Shown in pieces: positions 5,757 to 22,115 of a stretch of 64,000 nt of DNA. Within the stretch, counting starts at the first letter, position 1, and every line of letters begins with the position of its first letter. This DNA is from Candidatus Latescibacterota bacterium (GTDB taxonomy: Bacteria; Latescibacterota; UBA2968; GCA-2709665), in NCBI GenBank assembly GCA_965219455.1, contig OZ244744.1, forward strand, positions 5,056,001-5,120,000. The letters run 5' to 3'. The notes under the pieces are model-generated. The model did not search any database and was not told the DNA's origin. It saw nothing but the letters and a program-made list of their open reading frames with translations. The position numbers were made by a program, and so were the translations under genes.

Positions 5757-6379
5757 TGCAGATCCTCCGGCGAAAATTGGCTTATTTCGATCCACGGCGT
5801 CCGTTCCGAGGGGCGGTCCAGTGAGAAGAAAAGCTCCAACAGGCTTCCTTTTTGCAGGACATTGAGCCATCGGCGACTACGCTGCTCCTGTTCGATGGAA
5901 ATGGGGGTGACGCCAACGCGAAGACGCAGCTGGAAGTTACGCCCTTCGGGCAGTGGCCCGAACGCGAGCCCATGGAACGTCGAACAGAAAATTCTGACAC
6001 TGTCGAAATTGGTGGTCTGGAGGGTATCCCGCCGGCCGGCCTCACGCACAACCTGGTACCGTCCTTCCCAGATGTCGTGGTCCAGGCGCAGGCCGACGGC
6101 GAACTCTCTTGCTTTCGACTGCCGTTCCGAATCCAACCGGAATTCCATGACCGCGGAGGTGATCAGTCCGGACGCGATGGCGTCCAGCGCACGCCGGGAA
6201 AACAGAGAATCCAGTTTGACATCCAGTCTGAGCGTGTCCGCCTGCAGGTACAGCGTCCGGGCGGCGATAACGACGTCCCCGGCGTCGGAGCGCCCCGGGA
6301 ATACCACAAAAAAAAAGAGGCACGCGCAGATGGTAACGCTTCGCCCGAAAGCCTCGGCTGTGCCTCTATAAGTGTACAT
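5753..6379 (-). CDS. DUF4390-type periplasmic protein (NtrZ-like)
   Basis: Signal-like N-terminus, ALDAIASG and DIWEGRY pattern; position directly before ntrYX is typical. Confidence 0.65.
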   Translation of the reverse strand: MYTYRGTAEAFGRSVTICACLFFFVVFPGRSDAGDVVIAARTLYLQADTLRLDVKLDSLFSRRALDAIASGLITSAVMEFRLDSERQSKAREFAVGLRLDHDIWEGRYQVVREAGRRDTLQTTNFDSVRIFCSTFHGLAFGPLPEGRNFQLRLRVGVTPISIEQEQRSRRWLNVLQKGSLLELFFSLDRPSERTPWIEISQFSPEDLQ

Positions 6380-6577: not shown

Positions 6578-7867
6578 TCATAAGCCCATATTAATACCGC
6601 CGAACCGGTGGAATTTGACAATTAGAGTGCCCCTTTTCAAGCCGTAGCTGATATCGATCCGGTTAAACAGCAACGCGCCGATACCATAGGTACCGTTTGA
6701 GTCCCGGAGATGCTTTTCCGCGACCGGCCTACGAATCGCTGCCCACTCGGCAAAGCAATAGATCCTGCCGATCGGCCGGGTTGCAATCGCATAGACACCT
6801 TCAATTGAAACAAACTCCGTGCCGCCCTCGGGGCCTATCGCGCGTCGTTCGAACCCCCTGAGTTGATTTTGGCCGTCCAGGTAGAACCGCTCGAAGAACG
6901 GCGGCGATCCAAAAATCAACCCCGCTCGTCCACCAACGCTCAGGCTCTGTCCGGGCAGGGTCGCAAAATGGCGGTAGGCCTCCACTCTGGACCGGAGGTA
7001 GCTCGGGTTGGTGCCCAGGGCGCCGGGGGCGTAGTCCAGCCGGAAGTTGAGATCGAATCCCGGTGCGTTGCCCCAGAACCTCGATGCGGGCTGGCGGTAG
7101 AGTTCGATGCCGAAGGTGGATATGGGCGTGCGGCCCAGTGCCGAGCTGACTTCCCGGGTGAACTCGGGGCCCGAAATGAAGACCTCCGGCTCGTCGAAGT
7201 CGTTGACGCGAATCTCGTCGAAGGCGTAACGGACAACCAGCCGGTATTTCTCGCTGATCGGCTTACCAACGCCAACCGCGCCGCCGATTCTGTCCAGGTC
7301 GTACAGGCCGCGCTTGAGCGGGTCGGAACTGCGATACATGTCCCTGTCGGCTCGTGAAAAAAGGGCTTTCACGTGAAGGGAGATACAGTCGCTGGTGAGC
7401 CAGGGGTCGGTGTAGCTGAATCCGAAGCGCGTCAGACGTTCGCCAAGCGAATACTCGGCGCCAACGGTTTTGCCCTCTCCCCCGAGATTGACGTGGTAGG
7501 CGTCGGCGGCAAGCCCGAATCCGTCCAGTTCGGTGTATTCGAAACTGACGCCGACGTCGCCGAACCGTTTCTCGTCGACGTAAACCACCAGAACGGCCTT
7601 GCCCTGTTCCGTGCCGGGCTTTGGCGCAACGTGCACCGTTCGGAAGAGGCGGGTGCGGTACAGAGACTCCCGGCTGGCATCCAGTCTGCCGGGTGTGAGC
7701 CGGTCACCCTTGTGGATCGGAAGGGATCGAAGGATAATGTCGGCCTTTGTCTTGTGATTCCCGCGAACCTCAATTCGTTCGACCACGTATCCGGTTGCAT
7801 CCTGGGCGTACAATGAGGAATACGTGCTGGCGAAAAGGAGGGAGAGAAGAACAATCGTGCGCCACAT
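6578..7867 (-). CDS. Omp85/BamA-TamA family protein with a single POTRA domain
   Basis: Start at MWRTIVLL (signal peptide), POTRA (VERIEVRGNHKTK..LFRTV..VYVDEK), YTDPW and LRGF motif. The ORF-track N-terminal extension runs through a MITE. Confidence 0.8.
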   Translation of the reverse strand: MWRTIVLLSLLFASTYSSLYAQDATGYVVERIEVRGNHKTKADIILRSLPIHKGDRLTPGRLDASRESLYRTRLFRTVHVAPKPGTEQGKAVLVVYVDEKRFGDVGVSFEYTELDGFGLAADAYHVNLGGEGKTVGAEYSLGERLTRFGFSYTDPWLTSDCISLHVKALFSRADRDMYRSSDPLKRGLYDLDRIGGAVGVGKPISEKYRLVVRYAFDEIRVNDFDEPEVFISGPEFTREVSSALGRTPISTFGIELYRQPASRFWGNAPGFDLNFRLDYAPGALGTNPSYLRSRVEAYRHFATLPGQSLSVGGRAGLIFGSPPFFERFYLDGQNQLRGFERRAIGPEGGTEFVSIEGVYAIATRPIGRIYCFAEWAAIRRPVAEKHLRDSNGTYGIGALLFNRIDISYGLKRGTLIVKFHRFGGINMGL

Positions 7868-7989
7868 CGTGCTCGTGTTCTGTCCCGGAAATAGGTTGCC
7901 TGAATTCGGCCGACGAGTCGCCCGACTCGCGAGGCGCTTGAGCGCAGGCGACCTGCGTAAGGTCTGCGAGCGAAGGCAACGCAGCGAGA

Positions 7990-8022
7990 CCTGCCTGCCG
8001 CGCGTTGTTTGGCGCAGGCAGG
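7990..8022. repeat. 33-bp palindromic insert CCTGCCTGC...GCAGGCAGG
   Basis: Present in MITE copy 1, absent at the equivalent position of copy 2. Confidence 0.75.
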
Positions 8023-8035
8023 CTGGATGAATCGG

Positions 8036-8071
8036 CCTGCCTGTGCGTGCTGTCTCACGCACGCAGACAGG
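8036..8071. repeat. 36-bp palindromic insert CCTGCCTGTGCGTG...CACGCACGCAGACAGG
   Basis: Present in copy 1, absent in copy 2; its right half is retained in copy 3. Confidence 0.75.
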
Positions 8072-8405
8072 CGGGAGAATGGTGAGATATTTCTGGGACA
8101 GAACACTAACCTCCGCTGGAATCCGTCCACCACGTTCAGAGAGGTTAATCAAAGTGCGCAAAAACCGTACCAGGATGACAGCAGCACGTCAGACCCGAAT
8201 GGGACTCAAAATCAATCATTTGCGTCGAAAACAAAGATCGGCGCCTGGCCGGATCCTGTGAAAGAATAACACAGATGTGTATATTTTGCAACAGTTTTGT
8301 GGTTTTCGGCGTACGGTCGGGGATCCTGAAAGGGTTCAGGACGGACGTGAGGTTGCAGGCGGGGTTTCCGAAAATTGGAGCAGCAAGTGTTTCCGGGACG
8401 GGGCA

Positions 8406-9715: not shown

Positions 9716-10282
9716 ATGGCCGTCGAAGCGATTGAACGGTTTGTCTCAAAGTACGAAACGCTTTCCGGACGCGTACACCTGGCGGACAGCGTGGAGTCCG
9801 CTGCGGAGGCGGTGCTTTCCGTCCTTCGCGAGGACCGCGGGACCCGCCTGGCCGCGGCCGAACTTCCGGAAGCGCTGATGCAGGCACTGGAGCGGCGGTG
9901 TGCGGATGCGGGGGTTGACCTGTTGAAGCCGCCATACGACGGCCGGACGCTGCCGGGCGCCATCGATGCCGCGCACGTAGGTGTGTCCTGGGCGGAGTTT
10001 GCGGTGGCGGACGCCGGTGCGCTTGTCGAATTCGCGACAAACGACGCAACCCGCCTCGTATCCACGTTGCCGAGGATACACCTGGGCGTCGTTCGTGCCG
10101 CGGATATTAAAGAGACGCTGATGGACGCCGGTCCGCGGATCCGGACGTTTATGACACAGCAGCGGGAGAATGCCACCGTGACGTTCATATCCGGCCCGAG
10201 CCGCACGGCGGACATCGAGATGCGGCTTACGCTGGGCGTGCACGGTCCGGAAATGGCTCATGCGGTTATTTTGGACCCGTAG
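9716..10282 (+). CDS. lutC: LutC/YkgG (LUD domain) protein
   Basis: FISGPSRTADIEMRLTLGVHGP signature. Confidence 0.85.
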   Translation: MAVEAIERFVSKYETLSGRVHLADSVESAAEAVLSVLREDRGTRLAAAELPEALMQALERRCADAGVDLLKPPYDGRTLPGAIDAAHVGVSWAEFAVADAGALVEFATNDATRLVSTLPRIHLGVVRAADIKETLMDAGPRIRTFMTQQRENATVTFISGPSRTADIEMRLTLGVHGPEMAHAVILDP

Positions 10283-10347
10283 AAGACAATTTTGCGACGC
10301 GGATTCAACAGGAGTCACTTAAAGCCGAGCACGAAAGGATAGGGAAG

Positions 10348-12489
10348 ATGCCGAAGGGCCGGTATCAGCAACTGGAAAAAAAGATCGATGGGGCACTGAA
10401 AGAGAGATCAAGCCGGACGGCGCTATACCGCGCGATGAAACGCGGCCGGGACAGCCGGCATAGGGCGGTGGGCGCGTTGCCGGGAGGTGAGGGATTTCGC
10501 GACACGGTTCGTTCCATCAAGGTCCGGTGCCTTGAGCAGCAGGACGAACTGGTGGACAGGTTTGCGCAAAAGGTGCGGGACCGCGGCGCACGGGTATTCA
10601 TGGCCAACGACGGCCCCGAAGCGATTTCATACATTCTGGACATTGTGAAGGAACGCGGCGCCAGGTCCGTGGCGAAGTCCAAGTCGCTGACGAGCGAGGA
10701 GATCGAGGTAAACCATCCTCTGGAGGAAGCGGGGGTGGATGTAATTGAGACGGACCTGGGTGAACTGATCATTCAGAAGGTGAAGGAAAAACCCTTTCAC
10801 CTGGTCTTCCCCGCGGTGCACAAAACCGCGGCGGAGGTGGCGGAGATATTCCGGAAGGTGACGCAGCAGGACGTGCCGCAGGACGTCGACGCCATCATGC
10901 GAGTCGTGCGCAAATATCTCCGGCCGATTTTTCTGAATGCGGATATCGGGATGACCGGCGCCAACGTGGGGATCGCCGAAACCGGCGCCATTGTCATCGA
11001 GACCAATGAGGGCAATGCGCGCCTCGTGTCCAGCATTCCCGACGTGCATATCTGCATCATGGGTCAGGAGAAGATTGTGGATACGGTGGAGGATGCGTTG
11101 CAGATGATGCTTGCGCATCCCATCAGCGCGGTGGGTCAGCATCTCACCACGTATGTGACGATGATGGGGGGGAGGTCCCCTCTCGGCATCGGCGGTGGAC
11201 GGAGCCCGCGCGAGTCTCATATCATCATCCTGGACAACGGGCGCAGCCGGATGCGGGAAGACCCGCTGTTCAAGGACGCGTTGAATTGCATCCGTTGCGG
11301 CGCCTGCATGAATATCTGCCCCACCTACGGCGTGGTGGGCGGGCATACGTTCGGCTATATATATCCGGGACCGATCGGGATCCCCTGGACATCGGAGGTT
11401 CACGGACTGGAGAAGGCCGCCGAATTCGCGCCGCTTTGTATTTCCTGCGGGCTCTGTAAGGAGATCTGTCCCGCGGAAATCGATATCCCCATGATGATCG
11501 CCGGCGTGAAGGATCGAGACGGCGAGGAAAACGGGCATCCCCGGGTGAACCGGATGCTGATGGCCGCGGAGGGCTTTGCGAAGTTCGGCTGCGCCACCGC
11601 GCCGGTCTCCAACTGGATGCTTAAGAACGGGTGGTTTCGGTGGGCGATGGAGGTGTTTTCGGGTATCGACCGGAGGCGTGCGTTACCGCCGTTCAGGCGC
11701 CGTACGTTGGCGAAATGGTTCAGGAAGCGCGGCGCAGCGCCACGGGTGAAGGATCCGGTGCGACAGGTGGTATTCTTCGCGGATATATATGCGGCCTACA
11801 ATGCGCCGGAACTCGGCCGGGCGGCTGTCGAGGCACTGGAAGCGCTCGGATGCGAGGTCGTTCTGCCCAGGCAGCGCGGCAGCGGTTACCCCTATGTGGG
11901 CTATGGCGACCTGAAGCGGGCCGAGAAGGTGGCCGACGAGAACGTGCGTTTGATGATTCCCTACGTCGAGGCCGGGTACGATGTTGTAACCACCGAGCCG
12001 ACGGCGGCCTATTGTCTGAAGGTTTCGTACCCCAAGTTGCTCCACGGACGCGCGGACGCCAGCGCGCTGGGAGAACGGACGCACGAATTGTTCGCGTATC
12101 TGGAAATGCTCGAAACGCTCGCCGGCGATGGCGGTCGGGAACCTGTATTGGAGGGCCGGCGGTTCGGATTCCACGTATCCTGTCATCAGCGGCCACTGGG
12201 TTCGGGTCAGGAGGCGAGGGACTATCTCAGGCGGCGAGGCGCGGAGGTCGAGTTGATTGAGACCGGTACGTGTTGCGGGATGGCGGGTACGTTCGGTTTG
12301 AAGAAAGGGCTGCTCGGATACGAACTTGCACAGGCCGTGGGAGAGCCGCTGTTTCAGGCATTCCAGGAGGCGAAGGTGGATACCATCGTCACCGAGAGCA
12401 GCGTGTGCGCGATCCATCTGCGCGAGGGCACGGGTATCAACGTCGTGCACCCGCTGGAACTGTTGATGGACAAAGGTGAAACAGGGTGA
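10348..12489 (+). CDS. lutB: LutB/YkgF-type LUD + 4Fe-4S protein fused to CCG (Cys-rich) domains
   Basis: KSKSLTSEEI, ETDLGE, TNEGN, CIRCGACMNICP, YPGPIG, CISCGLCKEICP; C-terminal HVSCHQ and CCGMAGTFG. Confidence 0.85.
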   Translation: MPKGRYQQLEKKIDGALKERSSRTALYRAMKRGRDSRHRAVGALPGGEGFRDTVRSIKVRCLEQQDELVDRFAQKVRDRGARVFMANDGPEAISYILDIVKERGARSVAKSKSLTSEEIEVNHPLEEAGVDVIETDLGELIIQKVKEKPFHLVFPAVHKTAAEVAEIFRKVTQQDVPQDVDAIMRVVRKYLRPIFLNADIGMTGANVGIAETGAIVIETNEGNARLVSSIPDVHICIMGQEKIVDTVEDALQMMLAHPISAVGQHLTTYVTMMGGRSPLGIGGGRSPRESHIIILDNGRSRMREDPLFKDALNCIRCGACMNICPTYGVVGGHTFGYIYPGPIGIPWTSEVHGLEKAAEFAPLCISCGLCKEICPAEIDIPMMIAGVKDRDGEENGHPRVNRMLMAAEGFAKFGCATAPVSNWMLKNGWFRWAMEVFSGIDRRRALPPFRRRTLAKWFRKRGAAPRVKDPVRQVVFFADIYAAYNAPELGRAAVEALEALGCEVVLPRQRGSGYPYVGYGDLKRAEKVADENVRLMIPYVEAGYDVVTTEPTAAYCLKVSYPKLLHGRADASALGERTHELFAYLEMLETLAGDGGREPVLEGRRFGFHVSCHQRPLGSGQEARDYLRRRGAEVELIETGTCCGMAGTFGLKKGLLGYELAQAVGEPLFQAFQEAKVDTIVTESSVCAIHLREGTGINVVHPLELLMDKGETG

Positions 12490-12572
12490 GGGTTGGGGGA
12501 TCGGTCTGCGGAGAAGCATCCGAACCTGGAATTCACGTCTAAACTGAATCTGTCTGCAAGGGCACTTCTGCA

Positions 12573-15500
12573 ATGGCAGAGATGACACCTGGAAGTGTAA
12601 TCGACGGGCGGTACGAGACACTCGAAGTCCTTGGCAGTGGGGGCGTGGGGGTGGTTTATAAGGCGCGGGACCTGGATCGGGGGGGCGAGGTTGCGCTCAA
12701 GGTGCTGAAAAAGGGAGTAAGACAGGAGGAAGACCGCCGGCGGTTTATGCGGGAGTTTCACATGCTCTCACGCATTCGGCATCCGCGTGTTCTGAGAACC
12801 CATACCTGGGGGGTGCATGAAGGCCGGCCTTATTTTTCCATGGATTATCTGCAAGGCCAGACCCTGGCGAGCATGATCAGTGACAATGTAAAGAAGGAGG
12901 TGCTGCGGGGGTCGGGATTCTTGCGGCTGGTTCGGCAAATAGCCGACGGGCTGACCTGTATTCACGGTCAGGGCCTGCTGCACCTCGACCTGAAACCGTC
13001 GAACATCATGATCGTGGAGCAGGACCACCGGATCGAAGCAGCAATACTGGATCTGGGTCTGGCGCATTCCGGTAGTGGGCGCGCAGTATCGCTCACCGGT
13101 GACGTTTCAGCGACGGGTACGGCGGAATATATGTCTCCGGAACAGGGACGTGGCGGACGGGTCGACGAACGTTCCGACCTCTATTCCCTGGGCATTGTCC
13201 TCTACGAAATATTGGCGGGCGCGCCACCGTTTACCGGCGATAGTCCGGCTGCCGTCATCCTGAGGCATTTGGGGGAACAGCCGCGGCCGCTGCAGGCCCT
13301 TGAACCGAAGCAGGGGATGCCCGTACTGGCAATCGTGATGAAGCTTCTCGCCAAAGAACCCATAGACCGATTCCGGTCTGCCCGCGAACTCCTCGCCGGA
13401 CTTGACGCAATCGTCTCGGAGGGTGCGCTGCCGAAAGAAGAGCCAGGACCAGCTGGAACACGCCTCCCGGAGCCTCCCCTTGTGGGTAGGGAAAGGGAAG
13501 TGAAAGCGATGCGGAAAATCATTTCGGGGGCATACGAGGGCAGGCGGCAGACTGTGCTGGTTACCGGGCATCCAGGCATGGGCAAGTCGCGTTTGATGGA
13601 GGCAGTTAAGGGCGACGCCGCACTCTATGGTATGGAGGTGCTGTCGGGCGCGTGCCGACAGGATCGTCGTGAGGTCCACCTACCACTGATTGACGCGCTC
13701 CGAAACGTCTTACGGCTGGAACTCGTCTCTGACACCGGGAGTACTGATGCCTGCGCCGCATTGGAAAGGATCTGGCATCATTTGCGAAAGCTGGCGCGCA
13801 ACCGGCCGGTCCTGCTGTGTATCGAAGATCTTCAGTGGTCGGATGAACTCACGGACCGGTTTTTGCGGCGATGCCGGAGCGACGCCGAAGATTTTCCGCT
13901 TATGATCCTTGTGACCTGTCCAGGTGTTGGAAGCACGTCCATGGACGGGCACAAGGAAAGCCTCTTTAGGGACGGAGGGACCGGCAGGATTCACGAAATT
14001 CACCTCGGTTGTCTCACAAGGACTGAGACGGCGCGCCTGGCGGCTTCGATACTCGGCGAACGGCGGATCCCCGAGAAAGTCGGAGGTAGACTCTTTGAAG
14101 AGACCGGCGGTTGTCCCCTTTTTGTCGTGGAATCCGTCCGTACTCTGGTTGCGGAAGGCGTTGTTCGGGACGAGGGCGAAGATGGGTGGCGGTGGGATTC
14201 GATTCCGGCGGGGCTGATGCTCGATCGTGCGGTGGAGGTCCTTCGCAGACGCCTGGAGGTAATTCACCCGATACCGCGTCGGGTTTTGGATTACGCCTCC
14301 GTCTGCGCAAGCGGATTTACGTTTGATCTGATCGAGGGAGTCTGGCGGGAGAGTGGGTCAAATCTGGTGGAAATCCTGGATGATCTGGTGCGCCTGGACC
14401 TGTTGCGGAAGAGCACGGGAGCGGGCGCTCCGTACGAGTATCGACTTTCCAGTATGCTTCTGCGGCGCACGATCTACAATAGCCTGGATGCAGAGCGGCG
14501 TATTCTATTGCATCGGGCGGTCGCAAGGACACTGGAGGTCCTGAATTCCGAATCGAGGCCCCAGGCAGTCGAAGACCTGGCGTTTCACTATCTGAAATCC
14601 GGAGAAGTCGAAAAGGCCGATCAATACCTCATTCAGGCGGGTAAGCAGGCGCTCAGTGCAGACCGCGCATTGAGCATGTTCAAGGACGTATCGGAGCCGC
14701 GTCTTCAAGGAGATGATTTATCCGCTGTACCCATCGAGAAAATCAAATCCAGGGTGAGGTTCCTATGCGACTATTCGAACGCATTGTCGTCCCGCGGTTA
14801 TATGGAGGAAGCAAAGGAAAAAGCGCAGGATGCATTGTCGCTGGTTTCAGAAACGACCCCCGGTGAGAGGGCGCTGGTTCTGTGCCAATTCGGCATTGTA
14901 TACGCCCGTTCACGGTCGCATCCTGAAGCGGAACGGGCGTTTCTGGACGCGATTGCCATCTACCGAAAGCACGGACCGAGGAAAAGAGAAAGAGAAACGA
15001 GGCTTTGTTTGGCCTCCCTTTATGAACGGATGGAGAGACGAGAGGAAGCCAGGGTTCAAATAAAGCTCATATCCGAAGATTACGTGCGCGCCGGTGGCGC
15101 CCTGAGCAGGTCGAGAGCCAGCTATTTCAGCGGATATATTGCACACCTGGACGGGCGCCTTGGAGACGCCCATACGCTGTTCGAGTCTGCTTTGGAACGG
15201 GCAAAGAAAGTGGGAGACAGAGCTGAGAATATCGGCAACATGAATCTGATCGGAACGACCGCATTTAGGACTGGCAATTATCAGCGTGCTGAAGAGATCT
15301 TTCAGTCACAGCAACTGTCTAACCTTGATTGGAGACGTACGGCGACAGGGGGCGTTAGCCATTTTTATCTCGGTTCGATTGCGCTGGAAAAGAAAGATGC
15401 AAAGACCGCGGTGGTGTTTGGTGAAAAGGCCGTGGAGATCCTGTCTCATATAAGGGATGCGCATCAGGTGTACTGGGTATTTGGCCTGATGGCCGAGGCT

Positions 15501-17390
15501 CATGCAGCTTTGGGAAACGCCGACGAGGCGGTGAGGTGGGCAGACAGAGCCCGACCCGGCACCCAAATGGCCGGCGAAACCCCTACGGTGGCCTGGCGCG
15601 GGATCGGGGTCGCGTTAGCCGCGGCGAAGCGATGTGAAGAGGCCGAGGATGCGTTCAAACGGGCCATCGCGAACAAACCGGTAATCCAGCGATTTGAATG
15701 GTTCCGCTCGTTGCTGGCGGCTGGCCGATTTTACCTTGGGCACGGTAATCTGGATATGGCGCGTTTGCGGCTCGAGGCGGCAGAACGCAAGGCGGAGGCC
15801 CTGCAGACGCCCTTCTATGCACGGAAAGCGTCGAATCTTCTCTCGAGGTTGGCACGGCTGGAGGCACAATCTGAATCCAGGGTTTCAGCAGAGTCGCGGC
15901 CGATATATGACAGGATCGCGGCGGTATCCGAACTTGCCGCGGATCTGGGGGGGGGTCTCGATCTGCCGTCACTGATGGAAAGGACGCTGGACGGGTGTTT
16001 GAAGGTGGCAGGGGCGGAAAAGGCGATCGTCGTGTTTAAAGATGCACAGTCAGGCGGATTGCGCATCGAAGCGACACGGTCTGGCGAGGGTGGAAATGCA
16101 ACGTCGAAGGGCATAAACCGGGGTGTGGTACGGCGTGCAATTGAGAACAACGAACCGGTGTTTGGCGCGGACGCCTTGGCGGATAAGCGATTCAAGAAAC
16201 GGCAGAGTGTGTTCGACTTCGACGTCCGCTCGGTGGCGTGCGTGCCGCTATATCATCGAGAGGCAGGTTCGCTGGGGGCATTGTATTTAGACCTTCGCGG
16301 TTTCGGAAACGCCGTTTCCGACGCGGACAGGAGGTTCTTGATCGCACTTGCCGGCCTGCTGTCCGCGGGGGTAATTCAGGCCCGGATGAGTAGCAGGTTA
16401 AAGGAACGGGCATTGTATCGGGCGCGTGACGAGTCCGGCAGGAAGGGATTGGGAGAGCTGGTCGGAGTCAGTCGTGTGATGCAGGCGGTCTATCGTCTGA
16501 TCGAGCGGGCGGCCCGTACGGATATGACGGTACTCATACAGGGAGAGACCGGGACGGGCAAGGAACTGGCGGCCCGTGCTATCCACGATAACAGTGTCGT
16601 CAAAGATTGCTTGTTTCTGTCACAGAATTGCGGAGCCCTTTCCGGAGAGTTGCTGTATAGCGAATTATTCGGCCACAAGAGAGGTTCGTTTACGGGGGCC
16701 GTGTCGGATCGCACCGGGCTATTTGAGACCGCGCAAGGAGGTACGGTCTTCCTTGATGAGATCGCAGATGCCGCGCCCGAGGTCCAGGCCAGCCTGCTCC
16801 GAGTCCTACAGAACGGAGAGGTTCGGCGGGTTGGTGAGAGTGTGCCGCGAAGGGTGAACGTGCGCATCATTGCGGCAACGAACGCAGATTTGGAGGCGGA
16901 GGTTTCTAAGGGGGCGTTTCGGAAGGACCTATTCTACCGTCTTCAGGTGCTTCCCATCAAGATGCCGGCGCTGAAGGACAGAAAGGACGATATTCCCCTG
17001 CTGGCGGGGCATCTGCTGCGGAACGCCGCCCGCGAAGCCGGGAAAACCGTGGAGGGTTTCACGGAGGGGGCTGTGAAAGCTCTGATGAAGTACGACTGGC
17101 CCGGTAATGTACGCCAGCTGGATAACGAGATACGCCTTGCGGTTGCCCTGGTGGAAAATGGCGGCGTGTTCGAGATGGAACTGCTTTCTGAGCGCCTACG
17201 ACCTGAAGCGGGTTGGGATGATGGCGCGGCAGGCACTTTGAGAGCGTTTCTGCAATCGGTTGAGAAGCGGTATCTTTCCCAGGTTCTCGACATGCACAAT
17301 GGGAACGTAACCCGAACGGCTTTGGAACTGGGGCTTACGCGATCCGGACTGTACAAAAAGCTGGAGCGTCACGGCCTGCGGGGCCCGTGA
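12573..17390 (+). CDS. Ser/Thr kinase-AAA ATPase-TPR-GAF-sigma54 activator-Fis HTH fusion
   Basis: GSGGVG, VALK, HLDLKPSN, DLG, GTAEYMSPEQ; Walker A GHPGMGKS and Walker B CIEDLQW; TPR-like helices; GAF (SVACVPL..GALYLD); GETGTGKE, GSFTGA, FLDEI, WPGNVRQL; C-terminal HTH. Confidence 0.9.
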   Translation: MAEMTPGSVIDGRYETLEVLGSGGVGVVYKARDLDRGGEVALKVLKKGVRQEEDRRRFMREFHMLSRIRHPRVLRTHTWGVHEGRPYFSMDYLQGQTLASMISDNVKKEVLRGSGFLRLVRQIADGLTCIHGQGLLHLDLKPSNIMIVEQDHRIEAAILDLGLAHSGSGRAVSLTGDVSATGTAEYMSPEQGRGGRVDERSDLYSLGIVLYEILAGAPPFTGDSPAAVILRHLGEQPRPLQALEPKQGMPVLAIVMKLLAKEPIDRFRSARELLAGLDAIVSEGALPKEEPGPAGTRLPEPPLVGREREVKAMRKIISGAYEGRRQTVLVTGHPGMGKSRLMEAVKGDAALYGMEVLSGACRQDRREVHLPLIDALRNVLRLELVSDTGSTDACAALERIWHHLRKLARNRPVLLCIEDLQWSDELTDRFLRRCRSDAEDFPLMILVTCPGVGSTSMDGHKESLFRDGGTGRIHEIHLGCLTRTETARLAASILGERRIPEKVGGRLFEETGGCPLFVVESVRTLVAEGVVRDEGEDGWRWDSIPAGLMLDRAVEVLRRRLEVIHPIPRRVLDYASVCASGFTFDLIEGVWRESGSNLVEILDDLVRLDLLRKSTGAGAPYEYRLSSMLLRRTIYNSLDAERRILLHRAVARTLEVLNSESRPQAVEDLAFHYLKSGEVEKADQYLIQAGKQALSADRALSMFKDVSEPRLQGDDLSAVPIEKIKSRVRFLCDYSNALSSRGYMEEAKEKAQDALSLVSETTPGERALVLCQFGIVYARSRSHPEAERAFLDAIAIYRKHGPRKRERETRLCLASLYERMERREEARVQIKLISEDYVRAGGALSRSRASYFSGYIAHLDGRLGDAHTLFESALERAKKVGDRAENIGNMNLIGTTAFRTGNYQRAEEIFQSQQLSNLDWRRTATGGVSHFYLGSIALEKKDAKTAVVFGEKAVEILSHIRDAHQVYWVFGLMAEAHAALGNADEAVRWADRARPGTQMAGETPTVAWRGIGVALAAAKRCEEAEDAFKRAIANKPVIQRFEWFRSLLAAGRFYLGHGNLDMARLRLEAAERKAEALQTPFYARKASNLLSRLARLEAQSESRVSAESRPIYDRIAAVSELAADLGGGLDLPSLMERTLDGCLKVAGAEKAIVVFKDAQSGGLRIEATRSGEGGNATSKGINRGVVRRAIENNEPVFGADALADKRFKKRQSVFDFDVRSVACVPLYHREAGSLGALYLDLRGFGNAVSDADRRFLIALAGLLSAGVIQARMSSRLKERALYRARDESGRKGLGELVGVSRVMQAVYRLIERAARTDMTVLIQGETGTGKELAARAIHDNSVVKDCLFLSQNCGALSGELLYSELFGHKRGSFTGAVSDRTGLFETAQGGTVFLDEIADAAPEVQASLLRVLQNGEVRRVGESVPRRVNVRIIAATNADLEAEVSKGAFRKDLFYRLQVLPIKMPALKDRKDDIPLLAGHLLRNAAREAGKTVEGFTEGAVKALMKYDWPGNVRQLDNEIRLAVALVENGGVFEMELLSERLRPEAGWDDGAAGTLRAFLQSVEKRYLSQVLDMHNGNVTRTALELGLTRSGLYKKLERHGLRGP

Positions 17391-17427
17391 TGACGCCGGT
17401 CGACCCGCGGGTAGTATTGAAGACTTT

Positions 17428-17445
17428 TGTCAACTCGCGTTGACA
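17428..17445. promoter_or_regulatory. Palindrome TGTCAAC-N4-GTTGACA, candidate enhancer (UAS1)
   Basis: Perfect 7-bp inverted repeat with TGT-N12-ACA geometry. Confidence 0.5.
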
Positions 17446-17513
17446 GGCGATTTGCTCATTGGTATCAACGGGTTACGCATACGCCCGGGCAAGTCGTTCT
17501 TTCCCGGTAAAGT

Positions 17514-17537
17514 GGGTGTATACGTGGGTAAACACCC
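17514..17537. promoter_or_regulatory. Palindrome GGGTGTATAC-N4-GTAAACACCC, candidate enhancer (UAS2)
   Basis: 10-bp inverted repeat with 1 mismatch; same TGT-N12-ACA core as UAS1. Confidence 0.5.
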
Positions 17538-17579
17538 GGAAGAATAAATCCGGCTTGATTGTGCTTGAGGTTGAAACTT

Positions 17580-17592
17580 TAAATCGTTGTTT
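17580..17592 (-). promoter_or_regulatory. IHF-like site
   Basis: AAACAACGATTTA versus WATCAANNNNTTR (1 mismatch), located between the UAS and the -24/-12 element. Confidence 0.4.
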
Positions 17593-17632
17593 TGAAAGCG
17601 TCTGTGATGAATCAGGGCGTTTTTTTGTTTCC

Positions 17633-17648
17633 GGGTACAATGTTTGCA
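17633..17648 (+). promoter_or_regulatory. Candidate sigma54 promoter
   Basis: GGGTACAATGTTTGCA: GG-N10-GC with TTGCA, about 100 bp before the ATG at 17750. Confidence 0.6.
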
Positions 17649-17749
17649 ACATGGAACCATTGAAGCGCTTACGCGCGCATTGCCGGCAAACCACAATTTG
17701 AAACCAGTTTTCCCTCGCGTGCCCGCACGAGGGGTCCCGGTGTCGAGAC

Positions 17750-18787
17750 ATGTCTGAAAGGTCCCGTTGCAGGAACGATCCGATGGTGGGCGTTCATCCC
17801 GCTTTCGGTGAGGTGCGAATGCTTGCCGGCCGCGCCGGAGCGAGTGAACTACCCGTTCTGGTCACCGGCGAGTCAGGGACCGGGAAGGAACTCATCGCCC
17901 GCGAGGTCCACGACCGGAGCCCCCGATCCGGCGCGCCTTTTGTGGTTGTTGACTGCGGCATGCTGGCGAGGGAAATGGGGCGGAGCGAACTGTTCGGACA
18001 TGTCAGGGGGGCATTCACCGGAGCCACGGAGTCCCGCCCGGGGCTGGTGGGGGTCGCACGCGGCGGAACGCTCTTTTTCGACGAAGTGGGTGAACTCGAT
18101 GAGCCGCTGCAGCGGCAGTTGCTGCGCCTGATTCAGGAGGGCGAATACCGGACGGTTGGCGATCACCGATGGAAGAGGGCGGGTGTCCGGGTGGTCGCCG
18201 CGACGAACAGAGACCTGAAGCAGGGGGTCGAGGCGGGGCGTTTTCGAAACGATCTATACTACCGTCTCCGGGTCATTCATCTGCATCTGCCCGCTCTGAG
18301 GGAACGTCGAAGCGACATTCCGCTTCTGGTCGCCCATTTTCTGGATCAGTTCGGTGACGTCGGAAAAGCAGCCCGCGGGATATCTCCCGAAACCGGCGCT
18401 TTGCTGGAGGGATATGACTGGCCTGGCAATATCAGAGAACTCGCTCATACCATTGCGGGCGCGCTGGCGCTTACCGACGGAGACGTATTAACGCCTGACG
18501 ACCTGCCCTCCGAGGTTCAGGACGCGGAGACAAGACGGGACCGTGGCATCTACAGTCTGCCGTACAAGGACGCGCGAAGGATCTGCATGGACCGGTTCAC
18601 ACAAGAGTATCTGCACCGGGCACTCGTCAAGACAGGCGGAAATGTATCCCGGGCAGCCCGAAAAAGCGGTATCGGGCGCCAGTATTTTCAGCTTCGAATG
18701 TCGGAACACGGCATGGCCGCGGCGCAATACAGGAAGCAATCGAACGATGCGCATATGCAGGTATACCGCGCGGCGTCAGGTGATTGA
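17750..18787 (+). CDS. Stand-alone sigma54 activator (AAA+ and HTH, no sensory domain)
   Basis: GESGTGKE near residue 41, GAFTGA, FFDEV, WPGNIREL, GNVSRAARKSGI HTH. Confidence 0.88.
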   Translation: MSERSRCRNDPMVGVHPAFGEVRMLAGRAGASELPVLVTGESGTGKELIAREVHDRSPRSGAPFVVVDCGMLAREMGRSELFGHVRGAFTGATESRPGLVGVARGGTLFFDEVGELDEPLQRQLLRLIQEGEYRTVGDHRWKRAGVRVVAATNRDLKQGVEAGRFRNDLYYRLRVIHLHLPALRERRSDIPLLVAHFLDQFGDVGKAARGISPETGALLEGYDWPGNIRELAHTIAGALALTDGDVLTPDDLPSEVQDAETRRDRGIYSLPYKDARRICMDRFTQEYLHRALVKTGGNVSRAARKSGIGRQYFQLRMSEHGMAAAQYRKQSNDAHMQVYRAASGD

Positions 18788-18890
18788 TCTGATTATTTCA
18801 TCTTTCGGGAAGTGGAAGCCAGTACAGGCGATCTGTCTGGCTCATATGGTCGATGCGTCAAACCGATACCTCGAATAAAAGCTTTAAAAG

Positions 18891-18917
18891 GTGGAGCAGA
18901 CATTCTTGTCTGCTCAC
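18891..18917. repeat. REP-like palindrome
   Basis: GTG-GAGCAGACA-TTCT-TGTCTGCTC, a perfect 9-bp stem. Confidence 0.5.
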
Positions 18918-19199
18918 ATACATCAACCCGAAATCTCGAAATCACGTTTCCAGTTGGCGTGTCGTCACTTGATTAGGGACCAGAGAGCACGGCCGACGTC
19001 ATACGATACGCATCTTTTTCGAATTGCGGTTTTTACCATTCGCCTTGATACAATCGCTTTGTGCTTGATCCTGGCCGGGAAAAGGATTATCGTTCGGCTG
19101 TATCGCTGAAACACAGAAGGCGGGTAAATTATCTCGTGCGAGCCGGGCTCGGCGCTGATGCCGGGCGCGGCCTTATACTTTTTGCCGGAAGGAGTTAAC

Positions 19200-20261
19200 G
19201 TGCCCAGATTCAAGCCCGATGTATTGCGGGAAGTGGGGTATACGCTTTTCAGGGCGGCGGGATGCCGCGAAGAGGACGCGCGGACGGTGGTGGACCATCT
19301 GGTGGATTCCAATCTGTACGGGCACGATTCCCACGGCGCCATCCGCTTTTACGAGTATGCGAAGGCGGTGCAGGACGGCCGGTTCAATCCGAATGCGTCT
19401 CCCGAGGTGGTGAGTGAACGCGCCTGCACAGCCGTCGTGGACGGCGGCGGGGCCATGGGGCAGGTCGGGGCGACGTTTGCCACCCGGCTGGCGATGGAGA
19501 AGGCCCGTCACAGCGGCATTGCTACCGTGGTCCTGCGAAATACGAGCCATATTGGACGGGTGGGCGCGTATCCGTTAATGGCCGCCAGGGCGGGGATGAT
19601 CGGGCAGATCTTCGTGAATGCGGGCAGGCTGGGATATCAGATTGCGCCATTCGGCGGCATTGACGGCCGGTTGAGTACGAATCCGATCGCATTCGCTGCG
19701 CCGCGGCGGGACGCGGATCCCATCCTCGTCGATATGACGACGTCCGTCGTTGCCGAAGGGAAGATCCGCCTGGCGATCAACCAGGGCGTCAAGGTGCCGG
19801 AAGGATGGCTGATCGACGGGTACGGTGAGCCCACAACAGAGCCGAACGACTTCAAGGACGATCCCCCTGGCGCCATTCTGCCGTTGGGGGGAGCAGCGGG
19901 TCATAAGGGATACGGGTTGAGCATCATGGTCGAGCTATTGGGCGGGGCGCTGAGCGGCCAGGGGTGCGCGGCGGGGGACCGGGAGATGATCAGCAACGGC
20001 GTGTTGATCAATGCCTACGATATCGAACACTTCACGGATATGGAGACGTTCTACGACGAGGTGGAGGGGCTGATGTGCCACGTGAAATCCAGCCGCCTCG
20101 CGCCGGGATTCAGTGAAATCCTCGCGCCGGGCGAACCGGAGTTCAGGACCGCCGAACGCCGCGCCACCGAGGGCATCGAGGTGGACGACCGGACATGGGA
20201 AATGGTCTGCGAAATCGGGGCCGAATTCGGGGTGGATCTGGCGGAAATGGGGGAGGGTTGA
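19200..20261 (+). CDS. Ldh_2 family oxidoreductase (malate/L-lactate, YbiC/AllD-like)
   Basis: GHDSHG, SHIGRVG, STNPIAF, DMTTS, LPLGG..GHKGYGL and PGEPE; AAGGAG before GTG 19200. Confidence 0.9.
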   Translation: MPRFKPDVLREVGYTLFRAAGCREEDARTVVDHLVDSNLYGHDSHGAIRFYEYAKAVQDGRFNPNASPEVVSERACTAVVDGGGAMGQVGATFATRLAMEKARHSGIATVVLRNTSHIGRVGAYPLMAARAGMIGQIFVNAGRLGYQIAPFGGIDGRLSTNPIAFAAPRRDADPILVDMTTSVVAEGKIRLAINQGVKVPEGWLIDGYGEPTTEPNDFKDDPPGAILPLGGAAGHKGYGLSIMVELLGGALSGQGCAAGDREMISNGVLINAYDIEHFTDMETFYDEVEGLMCHVKSSRLAPGFSEILAPGEPEFRTAERRATEGIEVDDRTWEMVCEIGAEFGVDLAEMGEG

Positions 20262-20412
20262 GTTCGTCTTGGGGCCGGCGTGGGCAAATATAAGCGGCGT
20301 TAACTGGTGCCCCGCGGTTGATGATCGCCCATATGCGGCCGGCTGATGATCGGTCTAATCGGGCCGCCTGGCAGCCCCGGTTTACGGATTTCCGAAAACT
20401 CGTGGGATGCAA

Positions 20413-20440
20413 TTGACTTTCCGCCCCGATCCCGTATCTT
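20413..20440 (+). promoter_or_regulatory. Candidate sigma70 promoter of the rpn gene
   Basis: TTGACT-16 bp-TATCTT. Confidence 0.4.
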
Positions 20441-20487
20441 GTTTACGCGGAGCCGTCCCTCTCCCCCAGGGCCCCGGAGCATCCTGA

Positions 20488-21417
20488 ATGGCGCAATTCG
20501 ATGCGGTTTCCAAACACCTGATTCAATCCTATCCCCACGACTTCGCTGGTTTCACCCTGGGACGGGACGACATTGAGGTTCTTGAAGTCATTGACACCGA
20601 GCAGCTCACGGTTTCGGCAAGCCACGCCGACAGCCTCATTCGCGTCCGCGTCGATGGCCTTGAGGTATTGGTCCACAGCGAATTTCAAACGACCGACAGT
20701 ACGAATCCGGACATGCCGCGACGCATGGCCGGTTATATCGGGCGGGCCATTGAACGTCATGGCGTGGCCGTCTACTCGAGCGTCATCTACCTGCGGCCCG
20801 ATGCGGGTAAACGGGATCCGGGTCAATATCTTCAGTCGCATCCCGTCCATCGGGTGCACGTGCAGTACAGGGTGATTCGGCTGAGTGAACTGCATGGTCA
20901 AGAGATTCTCGATGCAGGACACGCGGGGCTGATCGCCTTTGCTCCCTTGATGAGGCCGCCACAAGGGATGACTTCACGGGCATGGTTGCGCCACTGTATG
21001 CACACTGCTAATGCGCGGTCAATGGCAATGCCGGCAAGAGCCGATTACCTGGCCGGTATGTCGCTGCTGAGCGGGTTGGTGTACGCGCCGGAAACCATTT
21101 CTGATATTGTCTCGAAGGAGGGCATGATGGACCTCATACGCGAATCATCCTTTGCACAATACCTTACCCGACAGGGCATCGAGCAAGGCATCGAAAAAGG
21201 GATCGAGCGAGGGATCGAAAGAGGCGTTGAGCAAGGTCTCCGGGAGAGTATCCTCGCCGTACTGGAGACTCGATTCGGTCTTCCTGCGCCGCATCCTCTG
21301 GCTGCTCGCATTGAGACGATTGACAACGTCCAACGCCTTAAAGCGTTGCTTCGCACGGCGGTCCAGGTATCCAGTCCGGAGGAATTCGGACAATTGTTGG
21401 ATCGGGAACAGCCCTGA
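20488..21417 (+). CDS. Rpn/YhgA-like PD-(D/E)xK nuclease family protein
   Basis: HADSLI..LVHSEFQT..MPRRMAGY..SSVIYL; C-terminal GIEQGIEKGIERGIERGVEQG repeats and a helical tail. Confidence 0.8.
   Translation: MAQFDAVSKHLIQSYPHDFAGFTLGRDDIEVLEVIDTEQLTVSASHADSLIRVRVDGLEVLVHSEFQTTDSTNPDMPRRMAGYIGRAIERHGVAVYSSVIYLRPDAGKRDPGQYLQSHPVHRVHVQYRVIRLSELHGQEILDAGHAGLIAFAPLMRPPQGMTSRAWLRHCMHTANARSMAMPARADYLAGMSLLSGLVYAPETISDIVSKEGMMDLIRESSFAQYLTRQGIEQGIEKGIERGIERGVEQGLRESILAVLETRFGLPAPHPLAARIETIDNVQRLKALLRTAVQVSSPEEFGQLLDREQP
21127..21417 (+). CDS. Putative internally translated RpnS (in-frame C-terminal protein)
   Basis: AAGGAGGG at 21115-21122 immediately before in-frame ATGATG (21124/21127). Confidence 0.5.
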   Translation: MDLIRESSFAQYLTRQGIEQGIEKGIERGIERGVEQGLRESILAVLETRFGLPAPHPLAARIETIDNVQRLKALLRTAVQVSSPEEFGQLLDREQP

Positions 21418-21454
21418 TACCCATTCGCTGAATACCCTTCGCGGGGAATGCGAC

Positions 21455-21494
21455 AACAGGACAATGCACTATTGTAGTGTGTTGTCCTGTTTGA
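21455..21494 (+). terminator. 17-bp hairpin after rpn
   Basis: AACAGGACAATGCACTA-TTG-TAGTGTGTTGTCCTGTT; its two G:U pairs favour a + strand RNA; weak U tract. Confidence 0.5.
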
Positions 21495-21546
21495 ATTAGA
21501 TCAACTCAGGCGCTTCAGTCCGGACGTGGAGCAATCTGCCGATCTA

Positions 21547-22115
21547 CTGCGCCGCGTTCGCGGGATGGGCATCCCATTTTCGTTGTTACGACGACGTCTT
21601 GTCGCCGAGGACAAGATTCGCCTCGCGATCAACCAGGGAGTACAGGTGCTGGAAGGATGGCTTATTGACGGGAAGGGTCAGCCCACCACGGAACCGAACG
21701 ACTTCAAGGAGGATCCGCCGGGCGCCATATTGCCGCTGGGGGGTGACGCGGGTCACAAGGGATACGGGCTGAGCATTATGGTCGAGCTATTGGGCGGGGC
21801 GCTGAGCGGCCAGGGGTAGCGCGGCGGGGGACAGGGAGATGATCAGCAACGGCGTGTTGATCAATGCGTACGACATCGAACACTTCACGGATATGGAGAC
21901 GTTCTACGATGAAGTGGAAGGGTTGATGCGCCACGTGAAATCCAGCCGCCTCGCGCCGGGATTCGATGAAATCCTCGCCCCGGGCGAGCCGGAGTTCCGG
22001 ACGGCCGAACGCCGCGCAACGGAGGGCATCGAGGTGGACGACCGGACGTGGGAAATGGTCTGCGAAAATCGGAGCGGAATTCGGTGTGAACCTTGTGGGG
22101 GCGGTGGATGGGTGA
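21547..22115 (+). pseudogene. Ldh_2 3'-half copy 2 (5'-truncated, frameshifted)
   Basis: Aligns to about 19706-20261. A +1 insertion creates TAG (GGGGTAGC vs GGGGTGC) at about 21817, and there is an extra A at about 22067. Confidence 0.9.

Follow-up and report, generated by a model that had tools for sequence, protein, structure and literature searches.

A candidate two-step sigma-54 switch in a Latescibacterota genome: a giant multidomain activator, an adjacent enhancer-type promoter and a sensor-less activator

A protein inhibitor is generally held to be necessary for sigma-54 activators that have no sensory domain, as in the pairs PspF/PspA and HrpS/HrpV, and the development of Myxococcus xanthus is said to involve enhancer-binding proteins acting in a cascade, in an account given by Giglio et al. 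in 2011. In the passages of PMC3824092 drawn on here, one sigma-54 activator of the Myxococcus development cascade switches on the gene of the next activator. In Cereibacter (Rhodobacter) sphaeroides, FleQ turns on a sigma-54 operon that encodes FleT (PMC7277832, cited in part), and FleT is described, in the relevant part of PMC3162934, as having neither a sensor nor a DNA-binding domain and as acting only as a hetero-oligomer with FleQ. The same part of that source treats activators without a sensory domain as a recognised class, Type Ic, which comprises PspF, HrpR/HrpS and LafK. Here we analysed a stretch of 64,000 nucleotides (nt) from a Candidatus Latescibacterota bacterium (assembly GCA_965219455.1, contig OZ244744.1, positions 5,056,001 to 5,120,000; hereafter the window). 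Positions 12573-18787 of the window hold two same-strand genes 359 bp apart, as read from the open reading frames (ORFs) and a Pfam scan: one for a giant sigma-54 activator and one for a small activator without a sensor. We propose that they form a two-step switch, in which the large protein would drive the gene of the small one from an enhancer-type promoter in the spacer; as judged from the DNA and its conservation, this reading as a whole is likely.

The locus and conservation of its control region

The palindromes, the -24/-12 element and the domain-less activator gene that a first-pass annotation had reported were all found in place by direct reading and a Pfam scan. Within 6.2 kb, the unit combines two genes, three putative operators, candidate bend sites, a presumed insulating terminator and a promoter, and its whole control region measures about 270 bp. 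Such compactness would make the unit movable into a reporter host for direct testing. Its features are as follows.

12573..17390, plus strand: ORF of the large sigma-54 activator, 1605 amino acids (aa) (Pfam scan, translation, motif check)
17388..17405, no strand: distal putative operator ("site 0") that overlaps the large gene's stop codon (alignment of genus loci)
17428..17445, no strand: putative operator palindrome 1, TGTCAAC-TCGC-GTTGACA (sequence read directly)
17463..17475, plus strand: perfect match to the integration host factor (IHF) consensus, TATCAACGGGTTA, between palindromes 1 and 2 (window scan)
17517..17534, no strand: putative operator palindrome 2, TGTATAC-GTGG-GTAAACA (sequence read directly)
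17580..17592, minus strand: IHF-like site, 12 of 13 positions, within a conserved GTTGTTTT block (window scan, alignment)
17594..17630, plus strand: terminator-like hairpin (17594-17624) with a T-tract (17620-17630) (fold)
17633..17648, plus strand: candidate sigma-54 promoter GGGTACAATGTTTGCA, with GG at 17634-35 and GC at 17646-47 (GG-N10-GC) (sequence, conservation)
17750..18787, plus strand: ORF of the sensor-less sigma-54 activator, 345 aa (Pfam scan, alignment)

The upstream 480 nt were aligned for 14 loci of the genus, including the window's own, and 13 of them align. All elements are kept in 13 of the 14 loci; the exception is L010, whose upstream region is replaced by foreign coding sequence. 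Aligning the spacer across genomes with the gene pair had been put forward as a check of the first-pass annotation, and both the palindromes and the promoter come through it in these 13 loci. The GG, AC and TTGC of the promoter are invariant (13/13 aligned loci), and the core of palindrome 1, GTC.AC-N4-GT.GAC, is kept in most of them, with a few half-sites off by one or two bases. Palindrome 2 mostly reads TGTCTAC-N4-GTAGACA in the relatives. Also retained in the aligned loci are the third site, GTTGAC-GCCG-GTTGAC on the large-gene stop codon, the block with the IHF match, and the GTTGTTTT block together with the hairpin and T-run, and the rest of the spacer is much less conserved than promoter, operators and hairpin. 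In L010 (positions 1-1420), a long foreign ORF with a coiled-coil-like start replaces both the region of the promoter and the ~25 codons at the start of the small gene; this ORF is possibly a mobile element, and the large activator of that locus is fragmented at a contig end.

Palindrome 1 is a perfect 7-N4-7 repeat located 206 nt 5' of the promoter GG, and palindrome 2, with one arm mismatch, lies 117 nt 5' of it. Site 0, at 245 nt, reads GATGAC-GCCG-GTCGAC here as opposed to GTTGAC-GCCG-GTTGAC in relatives. The 64-kb window has two instances of the pattern TGTNNAC-N4-GTNNACA, both of them in this spacer, against an expectation of 0.02, and none of 100 shuffled sequences contained two or more copies. 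In the 5.84-Mb genome it occurs three times, the third copy (genome position 2438427) being in coding sequence. With the 12 fixed positions of the consensus, 17428 is the sole perfect match in the genome among 180 hits with no more than two mismatches, and a palindrome with one mismatch at genome position 4843365 stands beside a sigma-70-like TTGACA-N17-TATTTT with no GG-N10-GC nearby. The operator is essentially unique in the genome, which fits a dedicated local regulator.

The promoter pattern is far less distinctive: GG-N10-GCA by itself is not above chance (175 found, 169 expected), and therefore the promoter call depends on conservation and not on the pattern. It lies 243 nt past the stop of the large gene, 116 nt before the start of the small ORF and 149 nt before a conserved ATG, with a transcription start predicted at about 17659. 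The genome contains one Sigma54_DBD match (197 bits, in a 491-aa open frame), taken as rpoN, and four genes of the HU/IHF family.

Between the palindromes and the promoter, the sequence that folds as a hairpin (-10.5 kcal/mol, z -1.82) is followed by seven T, and the T-tract ends 4 nt before the GG. Hairpin and T-tract are probably the terminator of the large gene, which would stop read-through. A simple scan for a terminator consensus did not call the hairpin at 17594; its only call, at 17536, is not the conserved hairpin. A search of Rfam with 17300-19250, at E values up to 1, gave no match, and the 125-nt leader of the small gene, folded with 13 relatives, gave -5.4 kcal/mol, with changes on both sides at one pair only and no conserved fold. 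As for DNA bending, the window holds two perfect and 30 one-mismatch matches to the IHF consensus WATCAANNNNTTR. The first-pass annotation had placed an IHF-like site at 17580. A minus-strand match of 12/13 positions does exist there, but a perfect match is found elsewhere, at 17463, and just 5' of the promoter stand the hairpin and T-run. The match at 17463 lies in a conserved CAACAGGTTAYGC block; by eye it is perfect in the closest relatives, and it has two mismatches in distant members of the genus.

A shared module behind giant activator genes

The layout of the window's spacer recurs behind other genes of the giant family. A GG-N10-GC site scoring at least 5.1 on a simple in-house scale lies 237-267 nt past the stop codon in 25 of 26 such genes, which comprise six loci examined first and the 3' flanks of 20 more giant genes from relatives. 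Among these 20 further genes, 19 have a site scoring at least 5.4 within the same interval, the miss being L039. The background on both strands of the 5.84-Mb genome is 517 sites scoring at least 5.0, or about 0.035 per 800 nt. Relative to the promoter GG, there are inverted repeats near -120/-130, in most modules also at -205/-245, and a further one is present at about -38 to -57 in most, not all, of the 25 modules. A hairpin and then a T-run precede the promoter in all three modules that were folded or read. The module of the window, in which 243 nt lie between stop and promoter, the repeats are at -245, -206 and -117 and the hairpin is at about -40, falls within this family frame. The second giant of the same genome (2880828-2885753) has TGTATAC-N3-GTATACA at -244 and -121 and a hairpin at -38, followed by TGGTACGAAGATTGCA. 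In a different family of the order, the genus g6 has a giant that is linked to the small activator and carries TGCATCC-N4-GGATGCA at -230, -209 and -128, a hairpin at -45 and a canonical TGGCACGGATCTTGC promoter. The wiring first suggested for the window, from large activator through an enhancer promoter to a sensor-less activator, fits this cis-module.

The repeats change together with the helix-turn-helix (HTH) domain of the giant gene that precedes them.

HTH class TRAGLQKKINRL: repeat TGCATCC-N4-GGATGCA, 6/6 loci
HTH class SRNGLQKMM: repeat TGTATAC-N3-GTATACA, 9/9 loci, one degenerate
HTH class VARISLYRKINRL: TGTATCA-type repeat, 2 loci
HTH class LVRASLYRKMNRL: GTATCTA-type repeat, 2 loci
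HTH class TRVGLHKKINRL: two related repeat types that track differences in the first helix, 5 loci
HTH class TRSGLYKKLERHGL (the window's giant and its orthologues in the genus): repeat TGTCNAC-N4-GTNGACA, found at this locus and in 12 relatives

The recognition segment of the small activator, GIGRQYFQ, is identical in the genera g1, g2, g3 and g6, and the regions upstream of its gene in these four genera have differing repeats or none and share no 10-mer. Since the repeats covary with the HTH class of the giant and the HTH of the small protein is invariant, the palindromes are most likely bound by the large activator and not by the small one. The earlier view that the sensor protein acts through the palindromes on the small gene is consistent with this, as the operator follows the HTH class of the upstream activator. 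Together, the promoter spacing of 237-267 nt and the HTH-matched operators offer a way to assign a target to each member of the large activator family, and the paired HTH/operator variants could be used to work out how Fis-type HTH domains read DNA.

The gene behind the promoter differs among modules, and related cassettes usually drive a small peptide together with a maturase. In g6 and in some paralogues of the window's genus, it encodes a peptide of ~60 aa with a KLTLINGT-type N-terminus and an acidic DDDDDWDDFDQ-type tail, and is followed by the gene of a 476-493-aa radical-SAM/SPASM enzyme that resembles the SCIFF and ranthipeptide maturases, under their cut-offs. Such peptide cassettes were seen at L021:8461-10097 and also in L022, L028 and L040-L056, and no NCBIfam model matches the peptides. 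The g6 cassette reads giant, operators, promoter, peptide, maturase, hairpin with T-run, small activator and UvrD-like helicase. In g6, a conserved hairpin, GGCATC...GATGCC, and a T-rich run stand 5' of the small gene (L019:1330-1500, L020:1380-1500, L029:8080-8150), even where the upstream gene is a different one; this hairpin may be an attenuator or leader element. In the window, the small activator directly follows the promoter, with neither a peptide nor a maturase gene, and no close homologue of the g6 maturase was found in this genome. A full-text literature search, whose coverage excludes subscription journals, found nothing relevant on radical-SAM peptides with sigma-54 and no report of a kinase-STAND-TPR-GAF fusion.

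The two activators, the proposed circuit and its alternatives

The genome has 12 sigma-54 activator genes, of which two are giants and one is without a sensory domain. For the large activator of the window, Pfam recovered the domain fusion that had been read from the 1605-aa ORF (all features on the plus strand).

12612-13373, plus strand: Ser/Thr kinase (Pkinase), residues 14-267 (Pfam; HLD, DLG and VALK motifs)
13476-13889, plus strand: STAND-type P-loop NTPase (AAA_16), residues 302-439 (Pfam)
14880-15680, plus strand: TPR repeats, about residues 770-1036 (Pfam)
15957-16367, plus strand: GAF domain, residues 1129-1265 (Pfam)
16461-17207, plus strand: sigma-54 AAA+ domain (Sigma54_activat) with lid, residues 1297-1545 (Pfam; loop GSFTGA)
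17250-17369, plus strand: HTH_8, residues 1560-1599 (Pfam)

In the translation, the kinase motifs VALK, HLDLKPSN and DLG are all kept. The NTPase has the P-loop GHPGMGKS (AAA_16, 74.2 bits, cut-off 32.6), and the AAA+ domain (PF00158, 224.5 bits, cut-off 20.2) has Walker A GETGTGKE and Walker B VFLDEI. The TPR region matches TPR_12 at 65.9 bits (cut-off 30.1) and a MalT-type TPR model at 37.4, under its cut-off of 45. In a tree of AAA+ domains, the large activator groups with the g6 giant linked to the small activator (87/75), inside a giant clade with 100/99 support.

The full form of 1605-1609 aa is present in four of the 15 genus genomes (G000, G003, G011 and G013). Nine others have a short form with TPR, GAF, AAA+ and HTH, which starts at about residue 675-700 of the full form; its length is 905-959 aa in the five short-form loci read, and the kinase and P-loop motifs are absent from all five short forms checked. 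Of the remaining two genomes, one has fragments only and in the other no orthologue was found. The short form is probably derived, because the g6 relatives are long. In the alignment, operators and promoter are retained with both forms, and on this ground kinase and NTPase are, as far as sequence can tell, dispensable for the wiring. The kinase-STAND part had been regarded as the essential sensor; this view was not supported, since both domains are gone from nine of the 15 genomes with palindromes and promoter kept.

The small activator consists of Sigma54_activat (PF00158, 197.3 bits), the AAA lid (84.1 bits) and HTH_8 (25.8 bits, cut-off 22) only, and its Walker A (GESGTGKE), Walker B, GAFTGA and sensor motifs are intact, in agreement with the original description of a downstream activator with GAFTGA and HTH but no input domain. 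Residues 12-317 align to 1ojl, a receiver-less fragment of ZraR. No start other than the ATG at 17783 (residue 12) is retained throughout the 13 relatives in the alignment, and for this reason the protein is probably 334 aa long, beginning exactly at the AAA+ core; one relative has a stop codon right after the upstream ATG. In 19 of 20 orthologue loci, the open frame extends no more than 92 codons 5' of the aligned start, the exception being the foreign fusion in L010, and orthologue rows from 42 genomes have open frames of 329-427 aa, except for G001 (569 aa, a foreign fusion).

Orthologues of the small activator that are 79-89% identical were found by protein matches in 14 other genomes of the genus, one of these copies being cut by a contig end and not fetched. 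The gene is intact in 12 of the 14 genus loci fetched, the exceptions being L010, where the start is replaced, and L014, with one TAA inside the match that was not placed. In the AAA+ tree the small activator forms a single-copy clade (100/100). It is present in 42 of 132 genomes of the class, all in six genera belonging to two families of one order, and was found in none of the 79 genomes of the class's other two families. Among the loci read, an activator gene is located directly 5' of the small gene in g1, g2 and g3; in the g6 cassette, one gene intervenes. The g2 neighbour is a Y_Y_Y-domain activator and the g3 neighbour another domain-less activator, both unrelated to the giants, and some g6 genomes have different neighbours upstream.

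The circuit that we propose would work as follows. The large activator would bind three 16-18-bp sites (17388, 17428 and 17517) through its C-terminal Fis-type HTH and would read a signal with its TPR and GAF parts and, in this genome, also with the kinase and the STAND NTPase. On signal it would assemble and contact sigma-54 RNA polymerase at GG 17634 / GC 17646, possibly aided by DNA bending at the IHF-type sites 17463 and/or 17580, and the hairpin and T-tract at 17594-17630 would shield the promoter from read-through. A transcript from about 17659 would encode the small activator only, which would be active as soon as it is made, because it has no regulatory domain, and would act on sigma-54 promoters elsewhere through its own different, highly conserved HTH. 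Sequence and comparison show the parts, how they are conserved, the layout common to the family and the agreement of operator with HTH class; we infer from the DNA that the sites are bound, that transcription depends on sigma-54 and starts where predicted, that the small protein is constitutively active and that a second-tier regulon exists. The first tier, from the large activator through the operators and the sigma-54 promoter to the small activator, has good odds in its favour on comparative evidence; for the second tier, in which the small activator would regulate independently and be constitutively active, the chances appear even. The pairing of giant and small activator recurs in the second family (genus g6). 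The arrangement suggests an alternative to a protein inhibitor, in which the activator is kept silent at the level of transcription and all sensing resides in the upstream activator.

Several observations weigh against this circuit. At the locus itself, the -24 element GGTAC is preceded by G and not T, so that none of the 25 modules scores lower than this one (5.1); both palindrome 2 and site 0 are degenerate by comparison with the relatives; and the sigma-54-contact loop of the large activator is GSFTGA, not GAFTGA. The GSFTGA loop is present in seven of eight genus orthologues checked (the eighth was missed by the search pattern), and the paralogue and the g6 giants have GAFTGA. In the relative G005, the large activator is on another contig, yet the module is kept. 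The 26 loci behind the family frame come from related genomes and are not independent, and they span six HTH classes. In g6, a hairpin with T-run stands between the maturase and small activator genes, and therefore these genes may be only partly coupled; no giant accompanies the small activator in five g6 genomes, and therefore other regulators can drive it. The inverted repeats 5' of the ~75 sigma-54 promoter candidates listed for the genome include no shared family except a repetitive extragenic palindromic (REP) element. Lastly, four metatranscriptome runs contained 7-10% of the sampled words and yielded pieces placed on 10000-22000, and nearly all of these pieces cover a repeat hairpin at 18877-18926 and not the genes; the others are 51 nt at 19953-20003 and 237 nt at 18055-18291, the latter with 11 differences.

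The REP-like hairpin at 18877-18926 lies ~100 nt past the stop of the small gene and has at least 20 copies in the genome by regular expression; several metatranscriptome contigs whose flanks are unrelated have no other part of the stretch in common. Another family of repeats, GGGCAACC-N5-GGTTGCCC flanked by a conserved GTAGG, has 58 copies (e.g. G000:C1 2749193 and 644444; none in the window) and accounts for false "operators" 5' of several sigma-54 candidates.

Further searches for targets of the small activator were likewise negative. When the genome was searched for repeat pairs arranged as in the family, the module of the paralogue was the only one to appear; no conserved GG-N10-GC was found for the LUD/LdhH operon or the Ldh_2 gene that flank the pair, and the local homologue of the g6 helicase has no sigma-54 promoter. 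The amplifier or feedback role that the first-pass annotation had suggested thus gained no support, as the searches of the genome and of upstream regions found neither a second-tier target nor a shared autoregulatory site. The genome has three PspA/IM30 genes, none adjacent to the pair and two with conserved sigma-54 promoters. A role of the small activator as the PspF of these genes was rejected, because the two PspA promoters and their operators are equally conserved in g4 and g5, where no small-activator orthologue was found; as a PspF orthologue it also fails the NCBIfam model TIGR02974 (207.2, cut-off 443.55). For the first PspA/IM30 paralogue, a sigma-54 promoter was seen in 29 of 29 order loci with enough upstream sequence (L057:1100-1500 and L059:1100-1500 are examples for two paralogues). 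TTGGTG-N5/6-CACCAA-type repeats stand 5' of the two PspA/IM30 promoters, and the second paralogue mostly has TTGT, not TTGC, at -12.

The rival that survives best, which we nevertheless consider unlikely, makes the small activator a partner and not a second tier: it would form mixed rings with the large one and alter its output. Mixed rings have precedents in FleT with FleQ and in HrpR with HrpS. The AAA+ cores of the small and giant proteins are sister clades (83/89) and their genes are linked in two families; an activator gene directly 5', or one gene away in g6, is the rule in the loci read, with the g6 exceptions mentioned, and no separate targets of the small activator were found. Regulation of the FleQ-to-FleT kind is documented as well, in the cited part of PMC7277832. 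However, the HTH of the small activator is complete, with a recognition part that does not vary between genera, and FleT, according to the part of PMC3162934 used here, has no DNA-binding domain. Moreover, the small activator occurs in the five g6 genomes in which no giant was found, and its upstream neighbours in g2 and g3 are unrelated activators. Its conserved HTH, intact ATPase motifs and independence from the giants make a separate regulon a better fit than an obligate partner role like that of FleT.

It is highly improbable that the palindromes are the small activator's own sites, with the large activator regulating something else. They do sit in front of the small gene, and positive autoregulation of cascade activators is known in Myxococcus (PMC3824092, in the passages cited). 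However, the invariant HTH of the small protein is at odds with g2, g3 and g6 upstream regions that have no such palindromes, and with the absence of any 10-mer common to the four genera; in addition, the same layout follows giants whose targets include no activator.

We give still less credence to a sigma-70 reading, in which TTGACA at 17440 and TATCAA 17 nt downstream would make up a housekeeping promoter whose -35 element is covered by palindrome 1 acting as a repressor operator. TTGACA-N17-TATCAA is present here and, by eye, in the five closest relatives, and in Escherichia coli glnAp1/p2 an activator site overlaps a sigma-70 promoter 5' of a sigma-54 promoter. However, a sigma-70 scan gave no site in 17200-19300, because TATCAA has no T at position 6; the -10-like hexamer is not kept in more distant members of the genus, the TTGACA is merely the right arm of the palindrome, and a sigma-70 transcript would meet the hairpin and T-tract at 17594-17630.

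Least credible is that the locus is a relic, what remains of a peptide cassette after decay and loss of its peptide and maturase genes, with a cascade that is no longer useful: the related g6 cassette (giant, promoter, peptide, radical-SAM maturase, small activator), the lack of a close maturase homologue in the genome and the loss of kinase and NTPase in most genus members are in line with it, but the small gene is intact in most of the loci fetched, at the protein identity given above, and conservation of promoter, operators and hairpin stands out against a spacer that is otherwise not conserved.

With the two-step switch as the preferred reading, a broader and decidedly tentative idea is that the giants of this order are the receptor arm of peptide circuits, whose TPR/STAND parts may sense the matured peptide in a sigma-54 autoinduction loop. 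At the present locus, peptide and maturase would have been lost, along with kinase and NTPase in most species, and the circuit rewired to a feed-forward cascade with a constitutively active activator as its sole output, and the matched HTH/operator variants of the cassettes would amount to a specificity code of Fis-type HTH domains.

Neighbouring features and comparison with known systems

The gene order in the genus is a LUD-domain gene, an LdhH-like gene, the large activator, the small activator and an Ldh_2-family dehydrogenase gene. The LdhH-like gene and the large activator are a mere 83 nt apart and may therefore be co-transcribed. The Ldh_2 gene probably starts with GTG at ~19203 after GAAGGAG, and its leader of ~170 nt is conserved, as is the TTGATC-N17-TATCGT in front of that leader (window 19030-19205). 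The spacer between the small gene and the Ldh_2 gene varies from ~0.4 to 1.2 kb among relatives, due to insertions. Elsewhere in the window, on the minus strand of 8155-8345, a sigma-54 candidate TGGTACGGTTTTTGC at ~8171 has a perfect TCCTGAA-N4-TTCAGGA 170 nt upstream; it fronts a BamA-like gene (6578-8161), followed by genes of a histidine kinase (4260-5870) and an NtrC/AtoC-type response-regulator activator (2881-4263). Near-identical GGTATTCCC(G/A)TTGCA sequences at 25842 and 37386 lie inside two 401-aa minus-strand ORFs (25332-26537 and 36876-38081) and probably represent a duplicated gene, not promoters.

Among the described systems close in plan is FleQ/FleT, where, in the cited parts of PMC7277832 and PMC3162934, a master sigma-54 activator likewise switches on a stripped-down second activator. 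Unlike FleT, the small activator keeps a conserved HTH, and unlike FleQ, the top tier is a kinase-STAND-TPR-GAF fusion. The FleQ/FleT output is flagellar; that of the present locus is not assumed to be so. Like the Type Ic activators PspF, HrpR/HrpS and LafK, the small activator is an AAA+ core with an HTH only and has no N-terminal regulatory domain. Unlike PspF and HrpS, it has no PspA- or HrpV-type inhibitor gene among its neighbours, as the first-pass annotation had correctly stated for the neighbouring genes, and its control appears to lie in transcription from the enhancer promoter.

The large activator resembles NifA, NorR and FhlA, in that its C-terminal 480 residues give a hit to the NifA model across GAF and AAA+ (E 1e-99, under the cut-off). 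As with proteins of the NifA type, it would bind upstream inverted repeats of the form TGT...ACA; the NifA upstream site is TGT-N10-ACA, and the spacing here is TGT-N12-ACA. It differs from NifA, NorR and FhlA in ~1100 extra N-terminal residues, which hold the kinase, the STAND NTPase and the TPR repeats, and in having operators right behind its own stop codon. In the Myxococcus xanthus cascade, as presented in the cited part of PMC3824092, each activator has sensory domains and the genes are spread over the genome; here, the second tier is sensor-less and all parts are found in one 6.2-kb unit. What is new, then, is the kinase-STAND-TPR-GAF fusion at the top tier, the stereotyped enhancer module adjacent to its own gene, and an intact sensor-less activator with a conserved HTH as the sole product.

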